A stretch of 52,629 nt of DNA, taken from an uncultured bacterium. GTDB taxonomy: Bacteria; Muiribacteriota; Ozemobacteria; Ozemobacterales; Ozemobacteraceae. The notes below the pieces were generated by a model. That model was not told the DNA's origin. It saw nothing but the letters and a program-made list of their open reading frames with translations, and made no database searches. Positions 6,622 through 37,609 of the stretch are shown here, one piece after another. The stretch is taken from the NCBI GenBank assembly GCA_964483805.1, contig CAZADH010000011.1, positions 1 to 52,629 on the forward strand, written 5' to 3'. Made by a program: the position numbers and the translations under genes. The number at the start of each line of letters is the position of its first letter. The stretch's first letter is position 1.

Positions 6622-7680
6622 ATGCTGCACCGCCCATCGCGAGTGAAACCGTCCATCGGCCGAGCGTTGCTGGCGCTTCTTGGCGCGCTCGTCTCGGTCG
6701 TCTCTGCTCTGCACGCCGAGCCCGAATGGGCCTGGCGACGGTGGGAATACATCAACACCCGCGACGTCGAGGTCACGGTCAGGGGTGACAAACCCGAGAT
6801 GCCGGCGGGTGATTGCGCCACCTTCACGGTCACCGTCCGCAACCGCACCGACAAATGCGTCAAGGTCGACTTCTTCGGCGGCCAGCACGCCGACCTGGCG
6901 GTGTATCACCATCGCGCCGAGATCTGGCGCTGGTCGCAATACAATCGATATACGTGGCGCGACGCCCGCCACAGCCTGCCCATCAACCCGGGCGAAACGC
7001 TCACCTTTCCGATGATGTGGAAGTCGGTCGACCGCATGAACCAACCCCTGCCCCAGGGCGATTACCGCATCGTCGGCGTGATCATGTCGACACCCCGCCG
7101 CATGATGTCGAACGCCACGACAATTCGGCTCACGCCGCCCCGGCGCTATCGCGACACGATCTATGTCAAGATCATGCGCCCGTTCGAACTCAAACTGCCC
7201 CGGTTCCTCGACGGCAACCAGGTCTACTGGCACCCCTACTTCGATTACAATGACAACCGCCTCGACGTCATCAACAGCAAAGAAGACGGCGACCAGACCG
7301 TCGTGCGGTTACTTCCCAAGCGGCTCGGCCATGTGACCGTCAATTTTCTCGGCTACAAACCGTTGCGCGGCAAGATGCAATCGAGAGAGCGCCGCGCGTT
7401 TCGCATCGAGGTCGTTGATTACGACCCGTATATGAAAAACAAGAAGAAGCCGCGCCCGACCGCGCGCCCCGCAACTCCACCGCCGACGACCGAACCCGCC
7501 GCCGAACCCTCGTTCACCTCCGACATCGCGGGCACTGGGACCGGCAGCCCCGCGTCTGCAGGTTCGGGCAGCGGCAGCGGCTCGCGCAGTGGCGGCACCG
7601 CCGTCATCACCTCGCTCGACGGCTCCGGCAGCGGGTCCGATTCCGGTTCCGCCAGCCCGGTCGCCACGTCCGCCGAATGA
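6622..7680 (+). CDS. Exported protein with BsuPI-like domain, second Ig-like (chagasin/I42-like) domain and S/G/T-rich tail
   Basis: Signal peptide, then GGQHADLAVY...IWRWS...INPGETLTFPMMW (BsuPI pattern). SD AGGAG at 6611. Confidence 0.7.
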   Translation: MLHRPSRVKPSIGRALLALLGALVSVVSALHAEPEWAWRRWEYINTRDVEVTVRGDKPEMPAGDCATFTVTVRNRTDKCVKVDFFGGQHADLAVYHHRAEIWRWSQYNRYTWRDARHSLPINPGETLTFPMMWKSVDRMNQPLPQGDYRIVGVIMSTPRRMMSNATTIRLTPPRRYRDTIYVKIMRPFELKLPRFLDGNQVYWHPYFDYNDNRLDVINSKEDGDQTVVRLLPKRLGHVTVNFLGYKPLRGKMQSRERRAFRIEVVDYDPYMKNKKKPRPTARPATPPPTTEPAAEPSFTSDIAGTGTGSPASAGSGSGSGSRSGGTAVITSLDGSGSGSDSGSASPVATSAE

Positions 7681-7714
7681 AGCATTGCCCATCCAACCGC
7701 TTGGAGAACAGGTC

Positions 7715-10700: not shown

Positions 10701-11257
10701 TGGGCGCCCTGTTCAACCACTCGCCGTTCCTGGCCATGGAAAACACCTGGGAACCCCTGAAGACCTACGAACCGTTCCAGAAGGTGTTGTTGCAGTTCTC
10801 GCAAGACTGGCGCGACATCGCCACCCGCTGGACCTCGCTCGCCGAGAAGATCGCCGTCAATCTCTACGGCAAGGTGCGCTTCAAGGTCGCGCTGCCGAAT
10901 CTCAAAATCGCCCCGATCGTGCCCGAAACCGAGCGCATCTATTACAACAATGCCAACCAGATCGAATACGTGCCGCAGATCATCGCCGGCAAGATGAGCG
11001 CCTACGACGATTTCGCCGAGATCCTGCAGTGGGTGCCGTTCTGCGACCAGGTCGTGTTCTGGGTTCTCGCCGACGACCGCGCCAGCGGCTACGTGCCGCC
11101 GTCGCACCCGAAGGTGCGCCTCATCTTCGGCGATGCGCTGGCCTCGTCACTGCGCAGCAAGAACATGGTCGATCTCGCCGAGAAACTGGCGCAACTCAAG
11201 AGCCAGCTCGACCGCCTGATGGACCGCAAAGCGCCGGCACCGGAGAAATCGGCGTAG
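7715..11257 (+). CDS. PilB/GspE-family extension ATPase with large C-terminal fusion
   Basis: MshEN-like N-terminus, ASDIHVEP, RLPQDGR, Walker A GPTGAGKTTT, DPDVVLVGEVRD, TGHKVLSTLHTN and the CPHC...CKEC zinc site. About 600 extra aa follow TTLEEV. Confidence 0.92.
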   Translation: MSTTTRPKKTIENLMIELGLLDAAQLEKAKNIQAQTLERLEDILLRMGFLSENQVLEVWAQFLDIDVIDLTNIKIDAKLISIIPEYQAKQYKVIPLKKDGNKLTIVMADPFDIMATDMIGFLTQCKLELMIAPRAQIEDAIKQFYSWDGFSVSGEETITGEDGEDAVRRTSEEGPVVQFLNAVFKQAIQKRASDIHVEPREDILLIRFRIDGLLHDMMTGPKSLLLPLISRVKILAHLDIAEKRLPQDGRLKVRMEGHDIDFRVSTVPSLLGEKAVLRLLARDSAYNLDDLGFLPDDLERVKTQLDEPYGMALVTGPTGAGKTTTLFGMLRYFTNSQINIFTIENPIEYRIDGITQVQTNEKIGLDFAMGLRAALRQDPDVVLVGEVRDLETAEIAFRASLTGHKVLSTLHTNNAPATINRLINMGVPPYLVAAAVKLVIAQKLLHRICPHCRAEYRPSQKTIQRLKLAPSRVAATTFYHGVGCKECNQTGAYGRLGVYESMAISDQLRDIIMEGGTEQVVRRVARLNGMKTMREIAIQRAFEGMTTLEEVLVVTSSDEDSTSSGLAATRRAVPQVIPSVVVASNFAAPAAPGGVPVMGPMGPVALPGAPTAMVATAPAPSLASVQGIDPDDPVFKSVLAKLSDEFLFFTDDQLAEKFQINPVQVRECLTLLGLERNREAFLQRFGRPPESMSDDEAAELVRTVEEKRGRVPSLVFAHDGSAKLFARVMTEAALRHLSERVQDLDLLPLDFTDAFCRENGLEDALAWAGGNRHQLVDLAMPGRYKPWQFDTAGTWFTTGDLVAKTREAVQWFMERQGISPEELPGRMTTENLHAAGLQHLLVQYNKSPFAIAEAVFPGQYHAWEFPEDEERLWFREDRHEIAGSATRWLIETKLAIPVEEVPRRIGLRDFHQHGLSKLLDLFNQNLHNVLTNAYPNRFQPWEYAEQSDIWRGAEALQTAAGATDWLVHDRLGWEPEKAVGQLTRRHFVNNGLGTMLGALFNHSPFLAMENTWEPLKTYEPFQKVLLQFSQDWRDIATRWTSLAEKIAVNLYGKVRFKVALPNLKIAPIVPETERIYYNNANQIEYVPQIIAGKMSAYDDFAEILQWVPFCDQVVFWVLADDRASGYVPPSHPKVRLIFGDALASSLRSKNMVDLAEKLAQLKSQLDRLMDRKAPAPEKSA

Positions 11258-20327: not shown

Positions 20328-20593
20328 TCGTGCACCCACCCTCGAACAAGGTCAATGGCCCATATCTCGGCTGCGCTGCTCAGGCCAGGCACTCCCACAT
20401 CACCCAGAAGCTGACGTTTACCGTTGCTACCTTCCGGTCCTCACGGGGTTCACGGGCTTCTGCCGTGCGGGACCCAACCCTCAACACTTAACAACCGAGC
20501 TGGTACCACCAGCCAAGCCCTCTGGTGGGGATTCGACCCGCCTTATGGGGATTTGCGGTTTGTAGAGGACCCCAAGCCCTCCGTCTAGCACGA
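20328..20593 (-). ncRNA. ffs: Long (Alu-domain, Bacillus-type) signal recognition particle RNA
   Basis: The 5' TCGTGCTAG pairs with the 3' GTGCACGA. The domain IV hairpin reads GTGAGGACC GGAA GGTAGCAAC. It is about 266 nt and lies upstream of dnaX. Confidence 0.92.
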
Positions 20594-20609
20594 TTAACTT
20601 CGAATCCAG

Positions 20610-20697
20610 CGGAAAGGGCGGGATTCGAACCCGCGGCGGAGTTTCCCCCGCTCACGCTCTCCAGGCGTGTGCCTTAGACCAACTCAGCCACCTTTCC
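20610..20697 (-). tRNA. tRNA-Ser(GGA)
   Basis: GGAAAGGTGGCTGAGTTGG..., anticodon arm CACGC CT GGA GA GCGTG, a long variable arm and GGTTCGAATCC. No encoded CCA. Confidence 0.95.
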
Positions 20698-20714
20698 AGG
20701 GGGAACCATGAGAG

Positions 20715-20807
20715 CGGAGAGAGTGAGATTCGAACTCACGAGGGAAGCTTTCAACTCCCCTACTCGATTTCGAGTCGAGCGCTTTCGACCAACTCAGCCA
20801 TCTCTCC
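20715..20807 (-). tRNA. tRNA-Ser(CGA)
   Basis: Anticodon arm CTCGA CT CGA AA TCGAG, a long variable arm and T-loop TTCGAAT. Confidence 0.95.
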
Positions 20808-20822
20808 AAAGGGTTAAAACAG

Positions 20823-20896
20823 CGTGCCCAAGAGGATTCGAACCTCTGGCCTTCACCTCCGCAGGGTGACGCTCTATCCAGCTGAGCTATGGGCAC
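20823..20896 (-). tRNA. tRNA-Arg(GCG)
   Basis: GTGCCCATAGCTCAGCTGGATAGAGC carries the A20 Arg identity element. Anticodon arm TCACC CT GCG GA GGTGA. Confidence 0.93.
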
Positions 20897-20939
20897 ATAA
20901 AAGAACAATACATTGTAAAGCAGCGGAGCGGTATAGCGG

Positions 20940-21029
20940 CGGAGAAGGGGGGATTCGAACCCCCGGTAGAGCTTGCACCCTACGACGGTTTAGCAAACCG
21001 TTGCCTTAAGCCAACTCGGCCACCTCTCC
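20940..21029 (-). tRNA. tRNA-Ser(GCT)
   Basis: Anticodon arm ACGGT TT GCT AA ACCGT and a long variable arm. Confidence 0.95.
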
Positions 21030-21044
21030 AGGAACACAACGCAC

Positions 21045-21127
21045 CGGAGGAAGTAGGATTCGAACCCACGGACCTTTCGGTCTCCGGTTTTCAAGACCGG
21101 CGCCATCGACCGCTCGGCCATTCCTCC
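21045..21127 (-). tRNA. tRNA-Ser(TGA)
   Basis: Anticodon arm CCGGT CT TGA AA ACCGG and variable arm GACC GAAA GGTC. Confidence 0.95.
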
Positions 21128-21136
21128 AGCACGGAC

Positions 21137-21714: not shown

Positions 21715-24432
21715 TCAGTCGGCCGTTTCTTCCTTCGCCGGAATGCGCACCACCGAACTCACCCGGTCTTTGTCGTCGAGCGAAATCAGTTTCACGCCCG
21801 ACGCCGCCCGACCGGTCTCGCGCACTTTGCCGGAATCGATGCGGATCAGTTTGCCCGAGTTGGTCACCAGCATCAGTTCATCACCCTCGAACATCCGCTT
21901 GATCGCCAATACGTCGCCGGTCTTCCCGCGCGTGACCAGGTTGATCACGCCGCGACCGCCGCGATGCGTGACGCGATAGGCATTGACCGTCGTCCGCTTG
22001 CCGAAACCCTTTTCGGTCGAGGTCAGGATCACGCCCGAATACGGCGGAATCGGCTCGTTGCTCGCTTCGCCGCCTTCCGGTGCCTCACCGTCGTCGATCT
22101 CCTCGGACTCTTCGGGACCATCCGGTTCGACGATCTCGCCGGCCGCCACCGCCGCTGCCTTCGCCGCCGCTTCGGCTGCGATCTCTTCGGGAGTCATCGG
22201 CGAGAAGACTTCCATGCCGATCACGTAGTCGGCCGTGTCTTTGAAGCGAATGCCCGTTACTCCGCGCGCCGCGCGGCCCATCACCCGCACTTCGCTGCAG
22301 GCGAAGCGGATCGCCTGTCCTTTGCGCGTCGCCAATACGACATGTTCGTCACCCTTGATCGTCTTCACGCCCACCAATTCGTCACCCTCGTCGAGATTGA
22401 TGGCGATGATGCCCTTCGACATCGGCCGCGAGAACGCCGCCAACGGCGTGGCCTTGACCACACCCCGCTTCGTCGCCATAAATACAGCACGTTGCTCGTC
22501 GAATTTGCGCACCGGCAATAGCGCCGTCACGCGCTCACCCTCGGCGAGGTTGAGCAGGTTGACGATCGCGCGCCCGGTCGCCGTGCGACCGCCCTCGGGC
22601 AGTTTGTGGCCTTTGATCCAGTGGACTTTGCCGGCATTCGTGAAGACCATCAATACAGTGTGTGTCGTCGCATGGAAAAGATGCTCGATGACATCGTCTT
22701 CCTTGACGCCCACACCGACGCCCTTGCCGCCACGGGCGATCTGGCGGAACGCCGTCGGCGTCACCCGTTTGATGTACCCGTTTTGCGTCACGGTGATGAG
22801 AATGTCTTCTTCCTGAATGAGATCTTCGGTCGCCAGCGCTTCGGCCGCCGACATGCTGATCTCGCTGCGCCGCTCGTCGCCGTACTTGTCTTTGATCTCG
22901 AGCAACTCTTTGCGGATGATCTCGTAGACCTTGGCCTCGCTGCCCAGAATCGCCTTCAACTGCTGGATCAACGCCAACGTCTGGTGGTACTCCTCGACGA
23001 TCTTCTCGCGTTCGAGGCCCGTCAACCGCTGCAAGCGCATCTCGAGGATCGCCTGGGCCTGCTTTTCGCTCAACGCGAAGTTGCTGCACAAGCCCTCTTT
23101 GGCGACCACTGGTGACTCGGCCTCGCGGATCAGCGTGATCACTTCGTCGAGGTTGTCGAGCGCAATCGTCAAACCTTCGAGGATGTGCGCCTTCTCTTCG
23201 GCCTTGGTCAACTGGAACTGCGTGCGCCGCTTGATGATCACGACCTGGTGGTCGAGATAATGGCGCAGAACCATCTTGATCGGCAGTGTGCGCGGCCGGT
23301 TGTCGACCAACACCAGCATCTGCACGCCGAACGAACTCTGCATCGGCGTGTGCTGGAACAACTGGTTCAGGATGACCTCAGTGTTGGTGCCCTTGCGCAG
23401 TTCGATGCACACGCGCATGCCTTCGCGATCCGACTCATCGCGCAAATCGGTGATACCGTCGATGCGCTTGTCTTTCACCAACTCGGCGATCTGGATGACC
23501 AGCTTCGCCTTGTTCACCTGGTAGGGCAACTCGTTGATGATGATACGATCGCGGCCCTTGCCGAACTCTTCGACCTTGGTGCGAGCCCGCACCACGATCG
23601 AGCCACGACCGGTCTCGAAATAACTGCGGATGCCCTCGCGACCCATGATGATGCCACCGGTCGGGAAATCGGGCCCGGGCAATACTTCGAGAATACGTTG
23701 TGTGTCAGTCTCGGGATCGTCGATCATCAGGATCAACGCGTCGATCGTCTCGGACAGGTTGTGCGGTGGAATGTTCGTCGCCATACCGACCGCAATGCCC
23801 GACGAGCCGTTGACCATCAGGTTCGGGAACTTGCTCGGCAGAACCGTGGGTTCTTTGAGCGACTCGTCGAAGTTCGGCATGAACTCGACGGTGTCCTGAT
23901 CGATGTCACGCAACAGCTCTTCGGCCAGCCGGTCGAGGCGCGACTCGGTATAACGCATCGCCGCTGCTTCGTCGCCGTCGACCGATCCGAAGTTGCCGTG
24001 CCCGTCGATGAGCGGATAACGCAGGCTGAAGTCTTGCGCCATGCGCACCAACGTGTCGTAAACCGCCGAATCACCGTGCGGATGATACTTGCCGAGCACT
24101 TCACCGACCGTGCGGGCCGATTTGGTGAACGGCTTGTTGTGGGTGAAGCCCTGGTCGTACATCGCATACAGCACGCGGCGATGCACCGGCTTCAAGCCGT
24201 CGCGCACATCGGGCAGGGCGCGACCGATGATGACGCTCATGGCGTAATCGATATACGCCTCTTTCATCTCGTCCTCGATGTTCATCGCGCTGGTGCGATC
24301 ATCGAGGGGAGGCAGCACGGGCGGCGGCGGGGGTGCCGGTGGCCCGTCGACGGCAGGCGGCTGCCCTTCGCTGGGTGCGTCGGTAGGTTCGGTCGGAGGA
24401 GGATTGTTGTTTTCGTTCTCGTTGTCAGCCAT
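21715..24432 (-). CDS. gyrA: DNA gyrase subunit A
   Basis: [30 protein letters not shown] and catalytic AAMRYTE. The CTD is six-bladed, with a variant GyrA-box and an acidic insertion. Confidence 0.97.
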
Positions 24433-24529
24433 GTTTTCGTTCCACTCTGCAGTTCAGGCCGCCAATCGTTCGGATTGCCTGCCCTTCCCGCGGACTGCGC
24501 AGCAGCAACGCGCTGCGCGTGTATTTACA

Positions 24530-26843
<2,314 letters not shown>

Positions 26844-26851
26844 GAATTCGA

Positions 26852-27910
26852 TTATTCCTCGACCGCCGTGGTCAATCGGTTTCGCCGTGAACTGCGAGCC
26901 GGCGGTGTAAATACAACGCGCCACGCCCGTGGCAGCTTTTCGTACCACACCGCCGAGCTCATGTCCAGGCGGTCGGGTGTGACTCCATAATGGAGCATCA
27001 TCGCCCGGCAGATCTCGGCGCGCGCGGCTGCACAGACCTCTTCATCGGGCTCGTCGGTATCGAGCGACTTCACCAGCGACTCGATCTCGAGTTCGCCCTG
27101 TTGCCGCACCTCGCGGCGCATCTGATCGCACTCGTCGGCGGTGGCCTGCGGCACGAGTTTGCGCAACTCGTCGTTGTTGAACCAGGGGTTGTCGGCCAGT
27201 AACTGGCGCAATCGTGTGGTGCGCAACTCGGTGCGAACCTTGCGGACCTCGAACACCGTTGCTCCCGGCACCAGGCGTGCCGCTTCGGCATCAGGAATGG
27301 TCACGTTGTCTTGCACCAGTCGACGCAAAATGCGCTCGCGCTCAAACGAGTGTTGGTACCGACAGACCGCGCACAGTTGCCCCTCTTGCTTCACCACCAC
27401 AGCCCGACAACCCGGGCACAACGCAGCGCCTTCGCGACGCAGTCCCTCTTCGCGGGCCTTCATTTTGGCGCGGGTTTCGTCGATCTGAGCCGTCATCGGA
27501 TTCTGCGGCAAATCGGCGCGCCCGGTCTGCTGTCGCCAATCGGGCCATGCCGGCCGGATCGGTCGCGGCGCGTCCCACGTTGTATGACGTTCGCGCGCCA
27601 GCCGCATTTCGATGCGCTTGATGCCCGCTTCGGGCACCGACGCGCGAATCTTCTCGAGCAGGGCATCGCGGGCAAACATCAGCGTCTGCATCCATTGGTT
27701 CGTCGAACACTCGACAAACAACGTGCCGCCGCTCACCTTCGTCGGCGCCGTCTGCTTGCCGAACTGCTCACCCACGATTTCGGCCCATTGATGCATCAGT
27801 TTGCCCAGACGCATGACATCTTCAGGATCGCGCGGTTTCTTGCCGACCGCACCAAGGATCGACAGCAGGACGCCACCCACCCGCTGCTTACCCGAACCTA
27901 CGCGCGCCAC
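26852..27910 (-). CDS. DUF721/DciA family protein with C-terminal zinc finger and helical extension
   Basis: WAEIVGEQFGKQTAPTKVSGGTLFVECSTNQWMQTLMF, followed later by CPGC...CAVC. Confidence 0.8.
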   Translation of the reverse strand: MARVGSGKQRVGGVLLSILGAVGKKPRDPEDVMRLGKLMHQWAEIVGEQFGKQTAPTKVSGGTLFVECSTNQWMQTLMFARDALLEKIRASVPEAGIKRIEMRLARERHTTWDAPRPIRPAWPDWRQQTGRADLPQNPMTAQIDETRAKMKAREEGLRREGAALCPGCRAVVVKQEGQLCAVCRYQHSFERERILRRLVQDNVTIPDAEAARLVPGATVFEVRKVRTELRTTRLRQLLADNPWFNNDELRKLVPQATADECDQMRREVRQQGELEIESLVKSLDTDEPDEEVCAAARAEICRAMMLHYGVTPDRLDMSSAVWYEKLPRAWRVVFTPPARSSRRNRLTTAVEE

Positions 27911-28992
27911 GGCAACACCTCACCTTTCACCACCCGCCAACACTCGGCGCCATCTGGAACCACCGGCGGATGCTCCCCCAGGACACCGGTCTCGAAGACC
28001 TGCGCCCCACTCGGGATCATCTGCCGCACCAGGGCTGCAAAACGCTGGTCGAGTTCTGAGTAGATGTCGTCGAGTGCAATCACCGGTGGTGACCCGAGCT
28101 CTTCGCTCATCAATCGGGCTGCGGCCAGATCGAGGCTCAACGCCAGCGCCTTCTGCTGCCCCAGAGACCCAAACACCCGGACGTCGCGCTGATCGAGTTT
28201 GAGCACCAGATCGTCACGGTGGGGACCGAGGCGGGTGAACCTTGATATTATATCGCTTTGTCGCCCATTTTTCAATGCCCCGCGATACTTTTCCTGCCGC
28301 TGTCCATCAGCATTTGCCGCACCCCACCCCCCCAATTCGATGCTCAGCTCCACCCCCGGAAAAAACAGGGCAAATGTCTCCAGAACGCGCCCGGCCAGAC
28401 GCTTGACCCACTTCTCACGGCGTGCCCACAACGGCTCGGCAAAATCGGCCAGCGTGCTCTCGATGGCCTCGAACCAGGCCGCCTGCGCTCCCGATTCACG
28501 CAACAACTTGTTGCGTTGCTCAGCCGCACGATGGCACCCGATCAGCACGTGCAGATAATACGGATCGATCTGGCCGATCGCGCGATCGAGCCACCGACGC
28601 CGCACCACCGGCGCTCCGTGGACCAGTTCAATGCCGAAACTCGAGATATAGACGATCGGCAACACGCCCAGCAGATTGCTCAGTTTCGCCACCGGACGGC
28701 CGTCCAACCACATCTTCTTGTGGGTGGCCGATAATTGTAGACGCACGTCGTGATCGAGTTGGTTCTGGTCTTCAACCACCACCCGAAGCAGCGCCGTCTC
28801 CTGCCCGATGGCCACCATCTCCCGGTCATAGCGCGCCCGAAACGATCGACCATGACCGAGAAGATAGAGGCCTTCGAGGAGGTTCGTCTTGCCCTGTGCG
28901 TTGGCACCCAGAATGAGGTTCCAACCCGCAGGTTGCAGAGTCAACGGTTGCAGATTGCGAAAACCCTGAATCGACAAGCCCCGGATGCGCAC
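27898..28992 (-). CDS. recF: DNA replication/repair protein RecF
   Basis: GFRNL, GANAQGKTNLLE, GPHRDDL, GSLGQQK and LDDIYSELD. Confidence 0.96.
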   Translation of the reverse strand: MRIRGLSIQGFRNLQPLTLQPAGWNLILGANAQGKTNLLEGLYLLGHGRSFRARYDREMVAIGQETALLRVVVEDQNQLDHDVRLQLSATHKKMWLDGRPVAKLSNLLGVLPIVYISSFGIELVHGAPVVRRRWLDRAIGQIDPYYLHVLIGCHRAAEQRNKLLRESGAQAAWFEAIESTLADFAEPLWARREKWVKRLAGRVLETFALFFPGVELSIELGGWGAANADGQRQEKYRGALKNGRQSDIISRFTRLGPHRDDLVLKLDQRDVRVFGSLGQQKALALSLDLAAARLMSEELGSPPVIALDDIYSELDQRFAALVRQMIPSGAQVFETGVLGEHPPVVPDGAECWRVVKGEVLPWRA

Positions 28993-29067
28993 GCAGCAAT
29001 GCCCCCAACGAGCCAGAGACCGCCGTCAGACGAACCGACCGCGGCGGAACCGCATAAAAAACGACGA

Positions 29068-30441
29068 TCAGCCGCCGGATTGTGGTCGAATCAACCGCGT
29101 GAGTTGATCGATCTGGGCTTTGAACGACTCGTCCAGATTCAGTTTCTGCGAGATCTTCCGTTCGGCATGGATCACCGTGGTGTGATCTTTGCCGCCAAAC
29201 GCTTCGCCAATGCGTGGATACGTCTCGTTCATGAGATTCCGCACCAGATACATCGCCACCTGGCGCGGCACCGCTATCGCTTGCGATCGGCGGTCAGAGC
29301 GCATCTCGACTTCGGAGATGTCGTAGAACTCGGCGACCTTCTTCTGGATCCAGGGAATGGTCAACCGATCGTTGCCGCCTTCCCGAACGATGTCTTTCAA
29401 GACCGTTTCGACCAGATCACGGTTGACCGGGCGCCCCGTCAGTGTCGCATAGGCAACCAGTTTGGTGAACGCGCCCTCGAGCTCACGCACGTTGTTCGTC
29501 ACCAGCTCGGCCAGATACATGAGCACTTCGTTGGCGACTTCGATGCCGTGCGAATCCGCAGCGGCCTTCAAGATTGCGGTGCGCAACGACACATCAGGCG
29601 GCTGAATGTCACACACCAGCCCCTGTTCGAAACGCGAGACCAGTCGTTCTTCGAGCCGATGAATCTTCTTGGGCGGCGAATCGGAGGTCATGACGATCTG
29701 TCGCATGTTCTGATGCAACTCGTTGAAGGTGTGAAAGAACTCCTCAACCACCGCACCCTTATCGGCAAAGAATTGAACATCATCGATGAGAATGACATCT
29801 TTTTTGCGATACTTTGCACGAAACTCATTCGGATTCTTGTCACGAAGAGCGTTGATGAACTCATTTGTGAATGCTTCAGACGACAAATAGGCAATCTTCG
29901 CCTTCGGATTGTTTCGTAACACTTCTTGCCCGATGGCCTGCATCAAGTGCGTTTTGCCAAGACCAACGCCGCCGTAGATGAACACCGGGTTGTATTGCTT
30001 TCCGGGATTTCGCGCGACCGCACGACAGGCATTGTAGGCAAAAGCATTGCTCTGTCCTTCGACGAAGGTATCAAAGGTGTATTTGGCATTGAGAACACCG
30101 TCAACACGCGCCGTGTGGCTCTTCGGTTGCTTGTTGATCGTCGTCGTCGTCTCGCCTTCAGCCCCCGGCAGAACCTGCTGAACCGGTCGGGGTTGCGCAC
30201 CGCGCACCGACATGCGCGCCTGCATCGGCCTCTCGAAGCGGGCCAGTACATCACGAATCAGAGCAAACACTTTGGGTTCGAGGATCTTTCGCGCAAAGTC
30301 ATTCGCGATTTCGACCTCGAGGGTGTTGTCGACAATCGTCACCGGCCTGGCTGTGGTTCGCAACATCTCGACCAGGTAGCCGCCGACGTTTTGCTGCTTC
30401 AATTCGCTGACAACGCTGTTCCAGATTTCGTCTTTTTTCAT
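29068..30441 (-). CDS. dnaA: Chromosomal replication initiator DnaA
   Basis: YTFDTFVEG, YNPVFIYGGVGLGKTHL, IDDVQF, RLVSRFEQG, NVRELEGA and GGKDHTTVIHA. Start MKKDEIW. Confidence 0.98.
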   Translation of the reverse strand: MKKDEIWNSVVSELKQQNVGGYLVEMLRTTARPVTIVDNTLEVEIANDFARKILEPKVFALIRDVLARFERPMQARMSVRGAQPRPVQQVLPGAEGETTTTINKQPKSHTARVDGVLNAKYTFDTFVEGQSNAFAYNACRAVARNPGKQYNPVFIYGGVGLGKTHLMQAIGQEVLRNNPKAKIAYLSSEAFTNEFINALRDKNPNEFRAKYRKKDVILIDDVQFFADKGAVVEEFFHTFNELHQNMRQIVMTSDSPPKKIHRLEERLVSRFEQGLVCDIQPPDVSLRTAILKAAADSHGIEVANEVLMYLAELVTNNVRELEGAFTKLVAYATLTGRPVNRDLVETVLKDIVREGGNDRLTIPWIQKKVAEFYDISEVEMRSDRRSQAIAVPRQVAMYLVRNLMNETYPRIGEAFGGKDHTTVIHAERKISQKLNLDESFKAQIDQLTRLIRPQSGG

Positions 30442-30579
30442 GTCTGCCTGCCCTGTACCCACCCGTCGCGCCCTTGGGGTACACTTGTCGATGTACCGCA
30501 AATGTGCGTCAATATCGAATGACACGTCGTTAGCACCGCTTGGACGTCTGAAATATATCAGCCGGGAAGGCCTTCCCGC

Positions 30580-30865
30580 AACGGTTATTTGTGGATAACA
30601 CAACTAAAAAAGTGATAAGTGGTGGGTATGAAAACGGGGACAGATTCTGAAAAACCGACCTGATTTTGCCCGACGCCACCCTTCCTGGGAATTGTGTGGA
30701 CAGTTTGTACCCAAGATCCACAGAGTTATCCACACCCCGATTCGTTGTGCTGGTGCGGTTTTCCCTTGGTTTTCCCCACAATCCACACCCCATACTGTTA
30801 ATACCGCTGATGTTAAAAGTTTAAACTGTAATACTCGCTCTGCGTGGGGATGGCCGTGGATACCG
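30580..30865. promoter_or_regulatory. Probable oriC (DnaA boxes + AT-rich unwinding element) upstream of dnaA
   Basis: Perfect boxes TGTGGATAA (30590) and TTATCCACA (30726). Two-mismatch boxes at 30695, 30705, 30714, 30772, 30779 and 30855. AT-rich tract at about 30790-30835, and the + strand switches from C-rich to G-rich here. Confidence 0.8.
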
Positions 30866-31007
30866 CGTCAGGGTGCATTGACACACGTTTTCATGGTCTG
30901 CTAGACTGCGCCATCCCGCAATACCTCGGGTTTTCGCCCCATGTGTAGCCGGCATCGGAATGCGGCAGCATTGAGGCAGCGTGAAACGCGGGAACATGGA
31001 GGTCACC

Positions 31008-31571
31008 ATGGCGAAGAAGCAGACAACTGCTCGTGTTGCGAAGAATTCAGCATCACCGGATGCCAGTGCATTCGACAAGGTCACTCAGATCATCGGGCTG
31101 ATGGGAGAAGCTGGGCTGGCCGAGCTCGACCTCGAGTCCCGTGGGTTCAAGATGAAGCTGCGACGACATGCGACACCGGTGATGATTCCGACGGTCACGA
31201 ACACACCGATGCCGACGATCGCTCCATTTGTCCAGCCGGTGCCATCGTCCGATCCCGGTGTCATTACGGCCACCTCGAATGCGGGGGTCATCACCCCTCC
31301 ACCGGCGCCGAAGAAGGCCGAACCGACGTATCACCACATCGTTTCACCGATCGCCGGAACCTTCTATCAAGCTCCCTCCCCGAATTCACCACCGTTCGTC
31401 AAAGAAGGGGACACAGTCACCCAGGGTCAGACGTTGTGCATCATCGAAGCAATGAAGCAAATGAACGAGATCAAAGCCGACGGTGACGGTCGGGTCATGA
31501 AAACCCTGATCAACAACTCGACGCCGGTCGAGAAGGGAACCGTGTTGTTCTGGATCGAGAAAAAGAAGTAG
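31008..31571 (+). CDS. accB: Biotin carboxyl carrier protein
   Basis: SPIAGTFYQAPSP, FVKEGDTV and IIEAMKQMNEI. SD GGAGGT. Confidence 0.93.
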   Translation: MAKKQTTARVAKNSASPDASAFDKVTQIIGLMGEAGLAELDLESRGFKMKLRRHATPVMIPTVTNTPMPTIAPFVQPVPSSDPGVITATSNAGVITPPPAPKKAEPTYHHIVSPIAGTFYQAPSPNSPPFVKEGDTVTQGQTLCIIEAMKQMNEIKADGDGRVMKTLINNSTPVEKGTVLFWIEKKK

Positions 31572-31659
31572 ACAACGATCCCGCAATTGTAAATATCGAG
31601 TAAATATACCATCAATTTTTGCATTGTTCTTTCATCCCACGGAAGAGGCGGTGACCCAC

Positions 31660-33030
31660 GTGAATCAATGCGATGTCATCATCATCGGTGGCGGGCCCGG
31701 TGGATATCCGCTCGCACTGCAGGCTGCAAAGAGCGGTGCCAGTGTCACGCTGATCGAACGTGACCAGTTCGGCGGCACATGTCTGAATTGGGGTTGCATC
31801 CCGACGAAGGCTTTGCTGGCTTCAGCGCAACAATTTCACCGGTTTCGGCACGCCGCCGACTACGGCTTGACGGCCGATAACATCGGTTACGACTGGAACG
31901 CCGTTCTCCAACGCAAAGCGACGATCGTTACCAAACTACGTGCCGGTATCGAGCAGATGTTGAAAACCGCGAAGGTGAATGTTGTTCGCGGCGACGCCCG
32001 CGTTTACGCCGATCGACACGTCGAGGTAACGAGTGCCGGCTGGGCCGGGCAGGCCGACAAGGTCGTGATTGCCACCGGTTCTTCTGTGGCAATACCGGGT
32101 ATGGTTCCCGCCGACCGGAAGATATTCTGGTCGAGTGATGAAGCGCTATCGGCCGAGTGCGTTCCCGAGACGCTTCTTGTCATCGGTGGCGGCGTTATTG
32201 GCCTCGAGATGGGCCAGATGTTCGCCGATTTCGGCGCGAAGGTCACCATCGTCGAGATGATGCCGCAAATTCTCCCGGGGTTGGATACCGCGGTAGCCAA
32301 ACGCCTGTTGCCCGTATTCAAGAAATCGGGGCTCGAAATTTTCGTCGGCACGAAGGTCGAGTCGTTGCAGGCCACGCCCGAGGGCGCCGTGGCAGTCTTT
32401 GCCGGGCAGGAACGCTCGTTCCAACGCGTTCTCGTCGCCACCGGTCGGCGACCGAACCGGTCTTGTTGCGAAGGCACCGGCATCGCTCTCGAACTCGAGG
32501 GGCAGGCCATCAAAGTCGATGCCGCTTTTCAGACATCAATACAAGGTATTTATGCTCTGGGCGATTGCACCCCCGGGCCGATGCTGGCGCATCGCGCCAC
32601 CTACGATGCCATGGTGATGGCCGCCCAGTGGCGTGGTGAGAAAGTCACCGCCGATTATCGCCACATGCCCGCCTGTGTCTACACGCGACCTGAGATTTCG
32701 TGGTTTGGTCTGAATGAAGACGCGGCACGAGAGCAGCAACCCCCGGTGAGAGTCGGGCGCAGTCAATTTGCCGCCAACGGGAAGGCGATGTGTGCCGGTG
32801 AAGCCGAGGGACAGGTCAAACTGCTGGTGTCTGCCGAAGGGCGGCTCGTCGGCGGTGTCCTCTGGGGCCCGGAAACGAGCAATCTGATCAGCGAAGGGGT
32901 CGCCTTGGCTGCCACTGGTGTCGATCTGCGCCAATCGCTTCTGCATGCTGTTCACCCGCATCCGACGCTGGCTGAAATCATGGGCGAGACGTTGGGGGCG
33001 GCCACCGGCATCGGTGGGGCCCATTCCTGA
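31660..33030 (+). CDS. lpdA: Dihydrolipoyl dehydrogenase
   Basis: GGGPGGY, GGTCLNWGCIPTK, GGGVIGLE and C-terminal HPHPTLAE. Confidence 0.93.
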   Translation: MNQCDVIIIGGGPGGYPLALQAAKSGASVTLIERDQFGGTCLNWGCIPTKALLASAQQFHRFRHAADYGLTADNIGYDWNAVLQRKATIVTKLRAGIEQMLKTAKVNVVRGDARVYADRHVEVTSAGWAGQADKVVIATGSSVAIPGMVPADRKIFWSSDEALSAECVPETLLVIGGGVIGLEMGQMFADFGAKVTIVEMMPQILPGLDTAVAKRLLPVFKKSGLEIFVGTKVESLQATPEGAVAVFAGQERSFQRVLVATGRRPNRSCCEGTGIALELEGQAIKVDAAFQTSIQGIYALGDCTPGPMLAHRATYDAMVMAAQWRGEKVTADYRHMPACVYTRPEISWFGLNEDAAREQQPPVRVGRSQFAANGKAMCAGEAEGQVKLLVSAEGRLVGGVLWGPETSNLISEGVALAATGVDLRQSLLHAVHPHPTLAEIMGETLGAATGIGGAHS

Positions 33031-33044
33031 GACGACGTGAAACC

Positions 33045-34292
33045 ATGGTGCTGAACCGCGAGGTCTTGAATTGCCTCGGTCATGTGGACCTGCCGGATTG
33101 GGCAGAGAGCATGGCCGAAACGCTCCGTCGAGAAGGGCACGCAAGCTTGTTGACGGCCCCTGTACTGCAGGGTGAGACCACCGCACATCATCCCGGTTGG
33201 CAGTATGTCGCGGAACCCCAGTTCGCCCAGAGCACGAGGGTCGGCTGGCATTTCGGTGGACATGACAAAGCGCCGGCCTGGTTGCCACCGTGGGTGATCA
33301 CCGCTGACTCCGAGCTGGCCGGGCAACGGTGGCTGCACGATGGCAATACGCAAACTGGGGTTCGTGCTGCGATCGGCGGAACGTTCCCGCTCATCGATCT
33401 GTGTCGCGAGGATCTACTGCTGTCGAAACCCCGGCGGTTGCTGGCACTGACCGACGGTGTGGCGACGTTCGTCTGCTCCACCTTGGAGCAGGCGCGCATG
33501 AACCTGGGCGAAGCACTGCGCGAGGCGCAGTGGCAAGGGGTCGCTCCGGCCAACCCAGGGCGTCATCTGCACAGCCTGGTGGCGCGTGATCGCCTTGCGC
33601 TGCTGGCCTCTTGCGTGTTTGGGGTCCGCTTTGATGTGGCCGATATTCCGGTCGAAGGGTTCGGTCGGCTGGAACGTATTGACGTTGTCATTGCGGGTCG
33701 CCTCGGTTTCGCGCTGCGCCAATTGGGGATCGCCGAACGTCATGCCGATGGGCGGTTTGAATTGTGGGTGCAACCGCGGCTCATTCCCTCCCGTTATCTG
33801 TTGTCACAGGTGCGCGGAGGCATGGAAGCAGCGTATTTACAGTTGGTTGACGGGACACCGGTCTTCTTCACCGGCGCGGGCACGGGCAAGAATCTGATCC
33901 TTCGCGGCCTGTTGCGCGACACGCTGGCGTATCAAGACACCCGAGACCGCCCGACTGCCGGGCTGCCGAAGGTTGCTCTCATTCCTGCCACCGACCTGAC
34001 CGAGGCGTTCTACCTGCGCCTTGGCATCATGAGTTTTGCGCGCACCCTGGCCGGCGTCACCACGATCTTCGCCGATCACGGCATCGGTTTGCGCACCGTC
34101 CTGCCGGCAGCACAACTTGGGTTGGGTGAAGAAGCGACGGGCGATGAGGCGAGCGACTTGATCCTGTTGACCGAACGAGTGAACGAGGGCGCCATGATGG
34201 CAGCCATCGAACAGATCAAAAACGAGGTCAAGTTGGCCGGACTGCGTTGTCTACTGCGCGTCGAGGGCGACGCGCTGCCGACGTGGGCGTAA
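33045..34292 (+). CDS. Homoserine dehydrogenase-like protein with ACT domain, catalytically degenerate
   Basis: The Hom scaffold is recognisable (AAIGGTFP, ALREAQWQG, LALLASCVFG, PVEG, VQPRLIP, FFTGAGTG, C-terminal ACT). The Rossmann GxGxxG, TANK, EADP..D and catalytic Lys motifs are replaced. Confidence 0.75.
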   Translation: MVLNREVLNCLGHVDLPDWAESMAETLRREGHASLLTAPVLQGETTAHHPGWQYVAEPQFAQSTRVGWHFGGHDKAPAWLPPWVITADSELAGQRWLHDGNTQTGVRAAIGGTFPLIDLCREDLLLSKPRRLLALTDGVATFVCSTLEQARMNLGEALREAQWQGVAPANPGRHLHSLVARDRLALLASCVFGVRFDVADIPVEGFGRLERIDVVIAGRLGFALRQLGIAERHADGRFELWVQPRLIPSRYLLSQVRGGMEAAYLQLVDGTPVFFTGAGTGKNLILRGLLRDTLAYQDTRDRPTAGLPKVALIPATDLTEAFYLRLGIMSFARTLAGVTTIFADHGIGLRTVLPAAQLGLGEEATGDEASDLILLTERVNEGAMMAAIEQIKNEVKLAGLRCLLRVEGDALPTWA

Positions 34293-34302
34293 GCGAGAGC
34301 AG

Positions 34303-35532
34303 GTGATCGTTCTGGACGCCGCGTCCGAGAACATTCTTGTCCAGAAATATGGCGGGTCGTCCATGGCTTCGCCGGAGCGCATCCGCAAGGTTGCAGCCAG
34401 GGTGGCTGATGCGCGCCGTCAGGGCCACGCGGTGGTGGTGATTGTTTCGGCGATGGGCGACACGACCGACGAACTCATCGAGCAACTCAATGGGTTGCAT
34501 CCCGACCCCGATCTGCGCGAACTCGATCAACTCATGGCTACCGGTGAAATCGTCAGTTGTTCGTTGATGACCACCGCGCTCAAGAGTCTTGGGGTGCGCG
34601 CCATGTCATTCAATGCGATGAGTCTGGGTATTCGCACCGATTCACGGTTTGGGGCGGCAACAATTCGAGAGATTGCCGGCCTGCCTCGGTTGCGGCAAGT
34701 GTTGGCCGAAGGCATGGTGGCTGTGATCGCCGGTTTTCAAGGCATTGACGACAACGGTGACCTCACCACGCTGGGCCGGGGTGGGTCCGATATCACTGCC
34801 GTGGCCATGGCACGCGCACTGGCGCAACGGGTCTGCGAGAAGTACACCGACGAGGACGGCGTGTATACAACCGACCCGCAGGTGGTGCCGACGGCGCGCA
34901 AGATCTCGACCATCGACTACGACGAGATGGAGTTGCTGGCCCGCTTTGGTGCCGGAATCCTTCATCCCCGGGCGATCGATTATGCTCGGGCGGCGGGCAT
35001 CGAGGTGCATGTGCGCTCGAGTTTCGTGGCAGCCCACGGCAGTCTCGTCGTGCATCGCCCACCCGCCCGGCACGGCGAAGTCGTCGGTCTCACCTGCGAT
35101 CGCAAATTTGTCGCCATGAAGGTGCAGGGAGTGCCGGTGCTGACCCGACCGACGTGGAACGACTCCGGCAACGATATCCTCCTCCCCCTCAGTTGTGAGG
35201 AGCAATCTGCCGATGGCAGGAAGGATCTTATTGTCGCTTTTCGACGTGCGGACAGTTATGACGTGATGACAAAAATCTGGCAAGATGCTGCAGACCTCGA
35301 TGCGCGTGAAGTCACAACCAACGGTAGTGTGGCGCTGGTTTCGGTCGTCGGTCGGGGTCTGCCCGGGCGTGGCCATCCTGTGGCCGAACTGACTCGGGTG
35401 CTCACCGAGCGCGCCTTGCCGGTTCTGGGAGTGCAACAGGTGGGCATCCGCCTATCTGCCGTCGTGCCGGCCGCCTGCTGCGACCGCGCGATGGCCCTGG
35501 TGCACGAGCATTATTTCGAAGGGGCGTCCTGA
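34303..35532 (+). CDS. lysC: Aspartate kinase
   Basis: VQKYGGSS, VSAMGDTTD, AGFQG, TTLGRGGSDITA and YTDEDGVYTTDP. Confidence 0.9.
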   Translation: MIVLDAASENILVQKYGGSSMASPERIRKVAARVADARRQGHAVVVIVSAMGDTTDELIEQLNGLHPDPDLRELDQLMATGEIVSCSLMTTALKSLGVRAMSFNAMSLGIRTDSRFGAATIREIAGLPRLRQVLAEGMVAVIAGFQGIDDNGDLTTLGRGGSDITAVAMARALAQRVCEKYTDEDGVYTTDPQVVPTARKISTIDYDEMELLARFGAGILHPRAIDYARAAGIEVHVRSSFVAAHGSLVVHRPPARHGEVVGLTCDRKFVAMKVQGVPVLTRPTWNDSGNDILLPLSCEEQSADGRKDLIVAFRRADSYDVMTKIWQDAADLDAREVTTNGSVALVSVVGRGLPGRGHPVAELTRVLTERALPVLGVQQVGIRLSAVVPAACCDRAMALVHEHYFEGAS

Positions 35533-35536
35533 TTAC

Positions 35537-37609
35537 ATGCCAATGCCGGGCAATCGACACGATGCCGCGAGCGCGACGAAGCTCTTGCTTCGTCGCGGGG
35601 TTCGTTGGGCGATTGCCGTCGTCATACTTTGTATTTCGATCGTCGTGCCGGCCCCGTCATCGGCGCAGAGCTTGCCGGACATGGATTCGCAAAAGGCACC
35701 GATCGAGGTTTATGGTGACTACCTCGAGTATCGCACCAAAGCGAACCAGGTGGTGACCAAGGGACGGGCTTATATCAAGTATCGCGACATGCATATCGCG
35801 GCCGACAATATCCAGTCGAACACCAAGAACGAAGACATCTTCGCGCAAGGCAATGTAAATTTCTGGAAGGGTTACGATCAGACCACGGGCGACCTGATGG
35901 TCTACAACATGAAGAACGGCAAGGGTTGGGTGCGCAATGCAACCATCAAGCGCAACCGCAACTACTTTGCCGCCCGTGATGTCTACCTGAGTCCGAAGTA
36001 CAGTCTGGCGCGCGATATCATGCAGACGACCTGCGAGAACGCATCGAGTCCCCACTACCGCATTATGGCCAGAGAAGTCGAGATCTACCCGGGTCATCGC
36101 ATGACCATGAAAGATCTGCGTTTGAAATGGAAGAGCGCGACCCTGTATCGAAAGGTTGCCGACGAAAGCAACCTCGAAGAGAAAGAGAAGTTCTTTCATA
36201 CGCGGCAAGGTGTTTCGCAGATCGATGGGTTCTACTTCAAGTTCAATACGAACCTCGATCTGGGACCGCGGGTTACCGGCATCTTCAACTATGACTATTT
36301 CGAGCGTCGAGGCTATGGCTTTGGCTTCAGCGGTTCGTATAAATACTCCGACCGCAGCAACGGATCAGTGTCAATATATCGTCTTGACGAGACGGTGCGC
36401 CAGCACTCGAACACGCAGATCAACCTGACTAACAACTACCAGATGAGCAACGGCGACAACGTCAGCACGAGTTTCAACTACACCGGCGACAAAGTGGCCG
36501 GTTATGCGGAAGCCCAGGCGTTGAACACGTTGCTGAATTACGCGACGCGCATCAAATTCATGAACGTCAGCCTCAACGCCAGTAAGTTCTTCGATCTCGA
36601 TGGCGAGAAGAATACATTGTCTGATGGCTACCAGATTCTGAACCGGGTTCCGGAGGTGAATCTGACCTTCCCGGCGGTGACAATGCCCCTGCTGCCGATT
36701 ACCATGAACGTCTCGGGGATGCTGGCGCGATACGAAGAGGGCACGCTCAAGGAGCTCAAGAAAACCTCGAAGAACGATATGCGCAGCAGTTTCTCGGCGC
36801 CGACCGTGCGCTGGGGCCGCCGCTTCGAGTTGACGCCCAGTTACAACTATGAGCGCTCGAGCTACAGCGAAGGGACGTCGCGCGAAACCGGGGCGACCGC
36901 GGTTCGGGCCTCGCACATCTTCAGCAAGACCATGCGCGCGGAATTCAACTACAACATCTCGACGCAGAAGGGAAAGTCGCCGTTCCAGTTCGACTATCAG
37001 AACACCACCGACATCTTTGGTACCCGTCTGGCCATTGCCGAAAACACCTGGTCGCTCAACCCGATCAACTTCAGTTACAACCGGGTAAGCCAGCAACTCG
37101 AGCAGATCTATTGGGATTATTCACTTCGCTCCGAGCAGGATGCGTATCGCAACTGGGAGTTCTTCCTGCGTCGCGACTACATTCCCGATGCCGTGCCGTT
37201 CGGCAAGATGAGCATGACCAAGATCAAGCCGTCGAACATGAATGTGCGCTATCGGTTGGCCAGCGCCCTGTGGTCGTTCGATACGAACATCACCTACCCG
37301 CATCAATACCGGCGCATCACCAACACGAGCATGAACTATCAGATCACCATCCGACCCGAGTGGCAGATCAACTTCAACAGCTCCTACAACCATCTCGATC
37401 GGCGATTCAGTCCGTTGAACCTGTCGTTCGTTAAAGACCTGCACTGCTGGGAAGCCCGGGCCGAGTGGAACCAGGAGCGCAAGGAGTTCTGGCTCGAGCT
37501 ATACCTGAAGGCGTATCCGGAGGATCCGGGCCGCTTCAAATACGGCGCCGACACGCATAAACTCGAGGCAAAGTTCGCGGCGTTCGACCAGATCACGCAG
37601 CGGCAGTAA
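35537..37609 (+). CDS. lptD: LPS-assembly protein LptD-like outer membrane protein
   Basis: Signal peptide and an OstA-like N-domain (AQGNVNF, YNMKNGKG, TTC..PHYRI.AREVEIYPG), then aromatic-rich beta strands and DLHCWE. Confidence 0.7.
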   Translation: MPMPGNRHDAASATKLLLRRGVRWAIAVVILCISIVVPAPSSAQSLPDMDSQKAPIEVYGDYLEYRTKANQVVTKGRAYIKYRDMHIAADNIQSNTKNEDIFAQGNVNFWKGYDQTTGDLMVYNMKNGKGWVRNATIKRNRNYFAARDVYLSPKYSLARDIMQTTCENASSPHYRIMAREVEIYPGHRMTMKDLRLKWKSATLYRKVADESNLEEKEKFFHTRQGVSQIDGFYFKFNTNLDLGPRVTGIFNYDYFERRGYGFGFSGSYKYSDRSNGSVSIYRLDETVRQHSNTQINLTNNYQMSNGDNVSTSFNYTGDKVAGYAEAQALNTLLNYATRIKFMNVSLNASKFFDLDGEKNTLSDGYQILNRVPEVNLTFPAVTMPLLPITMNVSGMLARYEEGTLKELKKTSKNDMRSSFSAPTVRWGRRFELTPSYNYERSSYSEGTSRETGATAVRASHIFSKTMRAEFNYNISTQKGKSPFQFDYQNTTDIFGTRLAIAENTWSLNPINFSYNRVSQQLEQIYWDYSLRSEQDAYRNWEFFLRRDYIPDAVPFGKMSMTKIKPSNMNVRYRLASALWSFDTNITYPHQYRRITNTSMNYQITIRPEWQINFNSSYNHLDRRFSPLNLSFVKDLHCWEARAEWNQERKEFWLELYLKAYPEDPGRFKYGADTHKLEAKFAAFDQITQRQ

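Follow-up and report, generated by a model that had tools for sequence, protein, structure and literature searches.

HisZ is a catalytically dead HisRS paralogue that serves as the regulatory subunit of the short-form ATP-phosphoribosyltransferase (ATP-PRT) HisG. A hetero-octameric form of ATP-PRT has been described, as have the alpha2beta2 aspartokinases (AKs), in which a separate ACT-bearing polypeptide pairs with the ACT domains of the catalytic chain and builds the effector sites (PMC10464499). The beta subunit of AKs of this type (LysC of C. glutamicum, M. tuberculosis and T. thermophilus) is a copy of the C-terminal part of lysC, in frame with it. In ThrA, MetL and the plant AK-HSDH enzymes, AK and homoserine dehydrogenase (Hom) modules are physically coupled with ACT-type domains between them, a precedent for the two working as one allosteric unit. 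Several bacterial Homs carry an ACT domain themselves (T. denitrificans, 3MTJ; M. tuberculosis ThrA, 6DZS; B. subtilis and C. glutamicum Hom). We analysed a 52,629-nucleotide contig of an uncultured bacterium (CAZADH010000011.1, hereafter the window), in which an open reading frame (ORF) similar to Hom lies directly upstream of an AK gene. This ORF, for which we use the name homL (33045..34292, plus strand), encodes 415 amino acids from an ATG start, has zero internal stops and closes with a TAA stop ending at 34292. It is like the ACT-containing Homs in its order of domains (N-domain, PF00742, C-terminal ACT fold), and both stand in an aspartate-pathway gene context. Unlike these enzymes, homL lacks PF03447, the GxGxxG loop, about 30 Rossmann residues, the catalytic lysines, the Glu/Asp/Asp ligands and the D-x-P-G motif of the ACT domain. 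As judged from the alignments, the homL family appears to be either a pseudoenzyme or a neofunctionalised offshoot of a well-known family.

The loss of Hom features was first apparent at the level of profiles. When homL was aligned to Hom HMMs, as the earlier note on this DNA had proposed, PF00742 was the only Pfam domain recognised (71.2 bits, residues 115-292), and the scores remained under the NCBIfam cutoffs: PRK06349 gave 128.8 bits (cutoff 205) with an alignment confined to profile positions 128-428, and PRK06270 gave 71.3 bits (cutoff 373). Solved Hom structures align to homL from residue ~106 on, the best being 3mtj (8e-29). Among the 27 members of the homL clade, PF00742 is present in all and PF03447 (NAD_binding_3) in none, versus all 10 canonical comparators. 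We then compared the positions that are invariant or nearly so in the 10 canonical Homs with their state in the 27 clade members. The glycines of GxGxxG are replaced by N (26/27), P (27/27) and K or Q (D15, P17 and A20 in the window), the clade having the motif G-[FY]-[LIV]-N-L-P-x-W at this place (GHVDLPDW in the window), and the ~30 canonical Rossmann residues that follow helix A are without counterpart. The earlier note had read this change as LxGxGxVG to LNCLGHVD; it was right about the loss of the loop and a few residues off in register, as MAFFT pairs the canonical G-L-L-G-L-G-T-V-G with G12-HVDLPDWA of homL. The alignments agree with each of the other motif changes that it listed. In TANK (T86-A-D-S89 in the window), the Asn is D in 26/27 (D88) and the Lys is A, T or S (S89), with no member keeping Lys. 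FEAxVGGGIP has become V106-RAAIGGTFP115, its Glu being S or R in the clade (R107). NGTxN is replaced by D-[GSA]-V, with the D in 27/27 (D137-G-V-A-T in the window). In the AEADP motif (A167-PANPGRH174), the Glu is G, P or T (P168), the Asp is N in 27/27 (N170), and the Asp that follows the motif is N, H or S (H174). Finally, in DAxHK (V179-ARDRLALL187) the Asp is V, I or A (V179) and the Lys is R in 27/27 (R183). The same replacement states were found in all 30 GTDB species that carry the gene, including the two deepest branches. The sole exception is the deep-branching L044, which has a Lys at the DAxHK Lys position, the second lysine position, and none of the other canonical residues.

The two conserved lysines, those of TANK and DAxHK, contact the C4 hydroxyl or aldehyde of the substrate. 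In yeast Hom they are Lys117 and Lys223, and one of the acidic ligands is Asp219, in a numbering that is reportedly that of DeLaBarre et al. (2000). In the P. horikoshii enzyme, the C4 hydroxyl of the substrate homoserine touches Lys116 and Lys215 and its carboxylate touches Asp206, and in other structures yeast Glu208 or its equivalent touches the substrate (PMC4495429). The acidic ligands for the carboxylate and amino groups of the substrate, equivalent to yeast Glu208, Asp214 and Asp219, are all replaced in the homL clade. Canonical Hom chemistry is very unlikely in a protein that is without both lysines, all three acidic ligands, the cofactor loop and a portion of the Rossmann domain, and the loss of this chemistry is well supported. 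It could be argued that homL is nevertheless still the homoserine dehydrogenase of the organism, with an unconventional active site and cofactor mode: no other Hom homologue was seen in the window or the ~20-kb neighbourhoods examined, L044 keeps a Lys at the catalytic position, some annotation pipelines call family members homoserine dehydrogenase, and large Riflebacteria genomes (e.g., 5.39 Mb, PMC7509429) make a Thr/Met pathway plausible. The ~40 ORFs of the window contain no second hom, and no thrB, thrC or asd. Yet this explanation has to accommodate (i) the N-L-P replacement of all three glycines and the missing Rossmann segment, (ii) the replacement in 27/27 of the acidic ligands and of both lysines that would contact the homoserine hydroxyl, and (iii) the absence of PF03447, the scores below the NCBIfam cutoffs and the name 'hypothetical protein' given to several members by the Prokaryotic Genome Annotation Pipeline. 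We consider it very improbable.

The structure of homL was predicted with AlphaFold2 from a 37-sequence alignment (predicted local distance difference test (pLDDT) 83.5, predicted template modelling score 0.86). The pLDDT exceeds 90 in the ex-catalytic and ACT parts (range over the ex-catalytic domain 84-97) and is 40-85 in the N-domain, where loops fall below 50. Searched with Foldseek, the model retrieved Hom structures first (3mtj, template modelling (TM) score 0.68; 6dzs, 0.67). The top match, 9a5i_B, is B. subtilis Hom in an integrative MtnK-Hom model based on cross-linking mass spectrometry, in which a canonical Hom is already a member of a hetero-complex. Three parts can be delimited: an N-domain (residues 1-105; 33045..33359) that is a shortened, remodelled remnant of the Rossmann domain; the ex-catalytic domain (residues 106-292; 33360..33920); and a C-terminal ACT-fold domain (residues 319-408; 33999..34268), which also matches the ACT-like domains of PGDH, IlvN and NikR. 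On the model, homL is thus a Hom fold plus an ACT fold. The claim of the earlier note that the ACT domain is retained therefore holds at the level of the fold and fails at that of Pfam, as PF01842 was detected in only 2/27 clade members and the homL of the window has no Pfam-level ACT match. At columns 388-392, the canonical ligand loop D-x-P-G is replaced by SFART in the window and by N-[ML]-[TN]-D-T in most members.

We next determined how far the family extends. A homologue search returned proteins of 390-421 amino acids that are 33-43% identical to homL and likewise devoid of PF03447. A profile search recovered the 27 protein clusters referred to above. Those that carry a lineage name are all assigned to Candidatus Riflebacteria or Ozemobacter, and the family is restricted to the candidate phylum Riflebacteria. 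Its members reach 470 bits or more in this search, versus at most 160 bits for the best canonical Homs. Scanning one genome per GTDB species, we found the gene in 30 species, all from Riflebacteria, Ozemobacteraceae or Rifleibacterium lineages except for one metagenome-assembled genome (MAG) labelled Erysipelotrichia. When 1.84 billion representatives were searched exhaustively with HMMER, ~25 of them matched the whole profile, at 270-665 bits; below the family, scores fall to 161 bits or less and belong to canonical Homs that match from profile position ~70-94 only. No intermediate between Hom and homL was found among these representatives. A candidate intermediate, the 447-residue P0054, was rejected, as it is an ordinary family member with a low-complexity insert; in its locus (L044, 5935-7305) this Ser/Arg/Glu-rich insert of ~45 residues lies between the N-domain and the ex-catalytic domain. 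No homL-AK fusion was found among family members, whose lengths range from 382 to 447 amino acids. Of the 79 columns that are highly conserved in the family, the homL of the window deviates at 13, in keeping with its deep branching. It also has a 7-codon N-terminal extension (33045-33068) relative to 26 of the 27 members, the start methionine of these 26 aligning with an alternative TTG start at 33066. Either the ATG at 33045 or the TTG at 33066 may thus be the true start in the window.

Several observations show that homL is maintained. The earlier note had described a full-length ORF with no frameshift, and the ORF was found intact in independent assemblies as well. Three of these (X1-X3) span it without indels, which rules out an assembly or frameshift artefact. 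The X3 assembly, a public sludge-type metagenome, holds a 96%-identical strain on one contig, with 110 substitutions and zero indels across 32900-35585. For the whole of homL, the 108 classified changes between X3 and the window gave a ratio of non-synonymous to synonymous substitution rates (dN/dS) of 0.072 (52 synonymous and 12 non-synonymous changes, dS 0.18), and 0.10 for the whole AK gene. Close pairs of relatives, compared by the method of Nei and Gojobori, gave homL values of 0.17 (L002/L004, dS 0.95), 0.10 (L013/L014) and 0.09 (L006/L015); in the same three pairs, the neighbouring genes had values of 0.05-0.10 (lpd), 0.03-0.12 (AK) and 0.07-0.19 (accB). The earlier note had also raised the alternative of a decaying pseudogene, a relic of hom that neutral dN/dS would reveal. 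All catalytic motifs are indeed lost, and in one metagenomic contig (L012, 1018-2212) homL is called as two ORFs of 79 and 275 amino acids, a split that may reflect a frameshift from sequencing or true pseudogenisation in a single strain. Against decay stand the dN/dS values of 0.07-0.17, the lack of indels in X3, the 38 invariant columns of the 27-cluster alignment and the intact ORFs in 30 species and at least 27 clusters, with 25-45% identity to the protein of the window. The selection data and the intactness of the ORF refute the pseudogene explanation, to which we give a negligible probability. Together, these data provide good support for the conclusion that homL is kept under strong purifying selection across the lineage.

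The distribution of this constraint within homL bears on what the protein may do. In the comparison with X3, dN/dS is 0.17 for the N-domain, 0.046 for the linker and ACT domain (residues 293-415) and 0.026 for the ex-catalytic domain, which is therefore the most constrained part; counted by invariant positions, the N-domain (14/97) is equally conserved as the ex-catalytic domain (20/187). At the former active site, D137, W163, N170, H176, R181, R183, R257, E261 and Y264 are invariant in 27/27 clusters, R287 is kept in 25/27 and D88 in 26/27; R181, R257 and D88 vary in deep branches. With the exception of D88, all these residues line the pocket of the ex-catalytic domain. Such a re-lined invariant pocket, together with the dN/dS of 0.026, speaks for a specific ligand-binding site or possibly a new catalytic one. 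Asp and Glu residues beside several Arg and His residues would be expected at a site for an amino acid or an anionic metabolite, which favours a sensor over a scaffold, and the composition of the pocket suggests that it binds a ligand instead of serving as a passive scaffold. The earlier note had proposed a dead enzyme repurposed as an allosteric or scaffold subunit of AK, which is partly supported; the replaced catalytic residues bear out that it is dead as a canonical Hom, and the re-lined, constrained pocket suggests more than a scaffold.

The same pocket features fit a new enzymatic activity almost as well as they fit a regulator. homL could be a neofunctionalised enzyme or a stand-alone binding protein that acts, independently of a cofactor, on an aspartate-family metabolite (candidates are aspartyl phosphate, aspartate, O-phosphohomoserine and diaminopimelate) and is co-expressed with AK because it belongs to the same pathway, without forming a complex. 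The invariance of the former active-site residues and the fact that the lowest dN/dS is found there are in its favour, operon membership fits a pathway role as well as a complex, and there is a precedent for new chemistry on a Hom-related fold: DXR-II/DRL are oxidoreductases related to homoserine dehydrogenases that replace DXR (PMC3847144). DXR-II is like homL in being a lineage-restricted offshoot of Hom-related proteins with a new function; it differs in keeping its NAD(P)-binding domain and in being still NADPH-dependent, whereas homL is without a cofactor site. In homL, however, the Rossmann remnant is cut short and has no recognisable cofactor site, and the 27-cluster alignment contains no conserved nucleophile such as Cys. 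The variation of R181, R257 and D88 in deep branches is less expected for a catalytic constellation, and a new enzyme would leave the coincident loss of effector motifs in AK (see below) unexplained. We regard this alternative as rather unlikely.

We then turned to the neighbouring AK. Its ORF (34303-35532, plus strand) encodes a monofunctional AK of 409 amino acids with a GTG start, separated from the homL stop by a 10-nt spacer (34293..34302, plus strand). As the earlier note had stated, its catalytic motifs are intact and its ACT region is divergent. The kinase domain (residues 1-250; 34303..35052) matches AA_kinase with 168.7 bits and has KYGGSS as its KxGGxS motif, and the protein passes TIGR00657 (295 bits, cutoff 208.7) while scoring 354 bits with PRK06635.1-2 (cutoff 376). 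It is most similar to C. glutamicum LysC (3aaw, 2e-68, residues 11-406). In the regulatory region (residues 251-409; 35053..35532), the Pfam family ACT_9 scores 19.4 bits (cutoff 27) and there is no ACT or ACT_7 match, versus 127, 55 and 78 bits for ACT_9, ACT and ACT_7 in the C. glutamicum LysC control. In eight Riflebacterial AKs, ACT_9 scores range from 0 to 29 bits with no other ACT match, and the kinase domains score 146-169 bits versus 183 in the control. A homologue search gave a similar picture: the ~100 best matches are AKs of the Riflebacterial type, for which PF00696 is the only precomputed domain, a few having a weak ACT_9, and below ~290 bits the matches are mostly non-Riflebacterial AKs that carry PF22468, PF01842 and PF13840. 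Columns conserved in canonical AKs are kept in the lineage at 88 of 133 positions in the kinase domain versus 5 of 54 in the regulatory region. None of the motifs D-[KR]-P-G, VDMIxQ, GxGMxSxxGVAA and MISTSE is left, and new invariants specific to the lineage have appeared, e.g., R383 in 35/35. A double ACT-like module is still predicted by AlphaFold2 (pLDDT 90.5), with helix 1 of ACT1 cut to four residues (pLDDT ~55, as for residues 281-300). The effector site is normally framed by this helix together with the beta1-alpha1 loop. A single lineage thus combines a dead Hom and an AK stripped of its effector motifs.

The two genes are also closely associated. homL lies directly upstream of the AK gene in every related locus whose contig reaches far enough. 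As called, the two ORFs overlap slightly in some loci and are as much as 27 nt apart in others; this arrangement suggests translational coupling. Further upstream, the block holds two genes that the earlier note had not considered. The first is an accB-like gene for a biotin carboxyl carrier protein (30981..31571, plus strand; TIGR00531, 130.9 bits, cutoff 115.2; PF00364; EAMKQ biotinylation motif), and the second, usually present, is lpd, which encodes dihydrolipoyl dehydrogenase (31624..33030, plus strand; TIGR01350, 454.5 bits, cutoff 408.8; CxxxxC and the C-terminal HPxPTxxE intact). homL might therefore partner AccB and/or Lpd and not AK, e.g., as an accessory subunit of a biotin- or lipoamide-dependent complex. 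accB is found upstream of homL in every locus whose contig extends there, including those without lpd; in many species lpd runs 1 nt into homL or stops 0-2 nt before it; and the partial rate correlation between homL and accB is 0.46. In one sub-lineage (L046, 5341-8185; L047, 5280-8191), however, lpd is absent from the block while accB, homL and AK are kept with a homL-AK gap of 1-2 nt, so that the constant unit is homL-AK with accB upstream: lpd is dispensable and the homL-AK junction is not. In addition, the partial correlation between lpd and homL is negative, the coincident regulatory remodelling is seen in AK and not in AccB, and we know of no biochemical link of a biotin carboxyl carrier protein or an E3 component to the Hom fold. 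Lpd is an unlikely partner of homL, and the explanation as a whole is improbable. In L038 (4645-6004, MAG GWC2_50_8), lpd is in two ORFs, through a frameshift or an assembly error.

We propose that homL descends from a three-domain homoserine dehydrogenase (Rossmann, catalytic and ACT), that NAD(P) binding and Hom chemistry would have been lost in the Riflebacteria lineage, and that the protein would have been retained for a different, selected function tied to AK. At its ACT domain and/or in the re-lined pocket it would bind a small metabolite that is probably anionic or resembles an amino acid; it would associate with AK, plausibly through side-by-side ACT-ACT pairing as in C. glutamicum LysC alpha/beta, and would supply in trans the allosteric control that the degenerate ACT module of AK may no longer give. 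Gene adjacency and the parallel remodelling of both proteins make the partnership with AK plausible. We favour this whole explanation, a Hom-derived protein kept for an AK-linked function as a putative sensor or allosteric partner in trans, only tentatively and with somewhat less than even confidence. The more specific version, in which throughout the phylum a dead Hom would act as trans-acting allosteric sensor, with a metabolite in the former active site and its ACT domain docked onto an AK with erased effector sites, is possible and held with lower confidence still.

A number of results weigh against this proposal. The order of genes at the origin of replication (gyrA, gyrB, a small ORF, dciA, dnaA / accB, lpd, homL, lysC; 21715-35532 in the window, and L001-L047) is conserved phylum-wide, which makes adjacency by itself weak evidence. 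The ligand loop of the ACT domain of homL is itself non-canonical. An invariant, highly polar pocket is equally typical of an enzyme active site, and its R181 is not conserved in the deepest branches. In partial Mantel tests of rate covariation, the partial r between homL and the regulatory region of AK was 0.27, versus 0.48 for the kinase domain of AK and 0.46 for accB; the tests did not discriminate between partners, and the regulatory region was not singled out as the partner of homL. Finally, no RNA run containing the homL gene was found.

The described systems provide parallels for parts of the proposed mechanism. As in the case of HisZ, a descendant of an enzyme would have lost catalysis, been kept by selection and come to control the first enzyme of a pathway, whose regulatory domain is missing or degenerate. 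HisZ differs in fold and pathway and is of tRNA-synthetase origin, whereas homL would derive from an enzyme of the same pathway, and its complex with AK and its allostery are proposed here by inference. Unlike the beta subunit of LysC, homL is a gene of its own, whose product has a body derived from Hom and only one ACT fold; neither homL nor the Riflebacterial AK has the canonical effector-loop motifs. In ThrA, one chain runs from AK to Hom and the dehydrogenase is active; in the present case the modules are on two genes, ordered Hom to AK, and the Hom module is dead. The literature that was searched contained nothing linking homoserine dehydrogenase with the term pseudoenzyme and nothing on an inactive Hom as a subunit of AK.

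The locus is part of the replication-origin region, with gyrA, gyrB, dciA, recF and dnaA on the minus strand. The recF-like SMC_N gene (27898-28992), between dciA and dnaA, is an addition of the window to the conserved order. dnaA is followed by the accB-like gene, lpd, homL, AK, a gene for a 690-residue outer-membrane-like protein, rpiB, upp and a dCMP deaminase gene at 38.2-39.4 kb, and a gene of the EPSP-synthase family (PF00275). A candidate sigma-70-like promoter lies between dnaA and accB (30878..30907, plus strand; TTGACA-18-TAGACT with a TG extension), a match to the consensus only. Promoter and terminator scans of the block gave no more matches than shuffled controls and no convincing terminator inside it, and Rfam searches at gathering thresholds identified no riboswitch or leader RNA before it, the only hits being a signal recognition particle (SRP) RNA and five tRNAs elsewhere. 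These are clustered at 20328-21128 (minus strand), where the large SRP RNA is followed by four tightly spaced tRNA-Ser genes (GGA, CGA, GCT, TGA) and one tRNA-Arg gene (GCG). The genes after AK vary among relatives: some have the outer-membrane-like gene and rpiB, L006 and L015 have a resistance-nodulation-division efflux system, and in L046 AK is directly followed by one gene with a RelA_SpoT domain and one with an HD_4 domain. In the window, the 690-residue ORF (35537-37609, plus strand) begins 4 nt past the AK stop; it has a faint similarity to LptD_N, LptA and LptC and no Pfam barrel domain, and may encode a divergent LptD-like outer-membrane protein. Homologues of 666-694 residues, also without Pfam domains, follow AK in many relatives. 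Elsewhere in the window (7589-11257, plus strand), the first ~600 residues of a 1222-residue protein contain MshEN and T2SSE ATPase domains, and a C-terminal extension of ~600 residues is without Pfam match.

These observations bear on how the genomes of Riflebacteria are annotated. As some pipelines label family members homoserine dehydrogenase and others hypothetical protein, metabolic reconstructions of these bacteria, which are common in digesters, wastewater and aquifers, may wrongly infer Thr/Met prototrophy. Depending on whether the rest of these genomes encodes a canonical hom, or thrB and thrC, homL may be either an additional paralogue or what remains of the only hom. As the family is small, sharply delimited and recognisable by a simple signature, two recombinant proteins would suffice for a direct test of the hypothesis. 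Should homL regulate AK, it would provide a second clear bacterial case, after HisZ/HisG, of a dead paralogue acting as allosteric subunit of a committed-step enzyme of amino-acid biosynthesis. It would also be the first such case known from the aspartate pathway, and the first in which the subunit stems from an enzyme of the very pathway it controls. If true, feedback control of the aspartate pathway would in these bacteria have been outsourced to an enzyme fossil.

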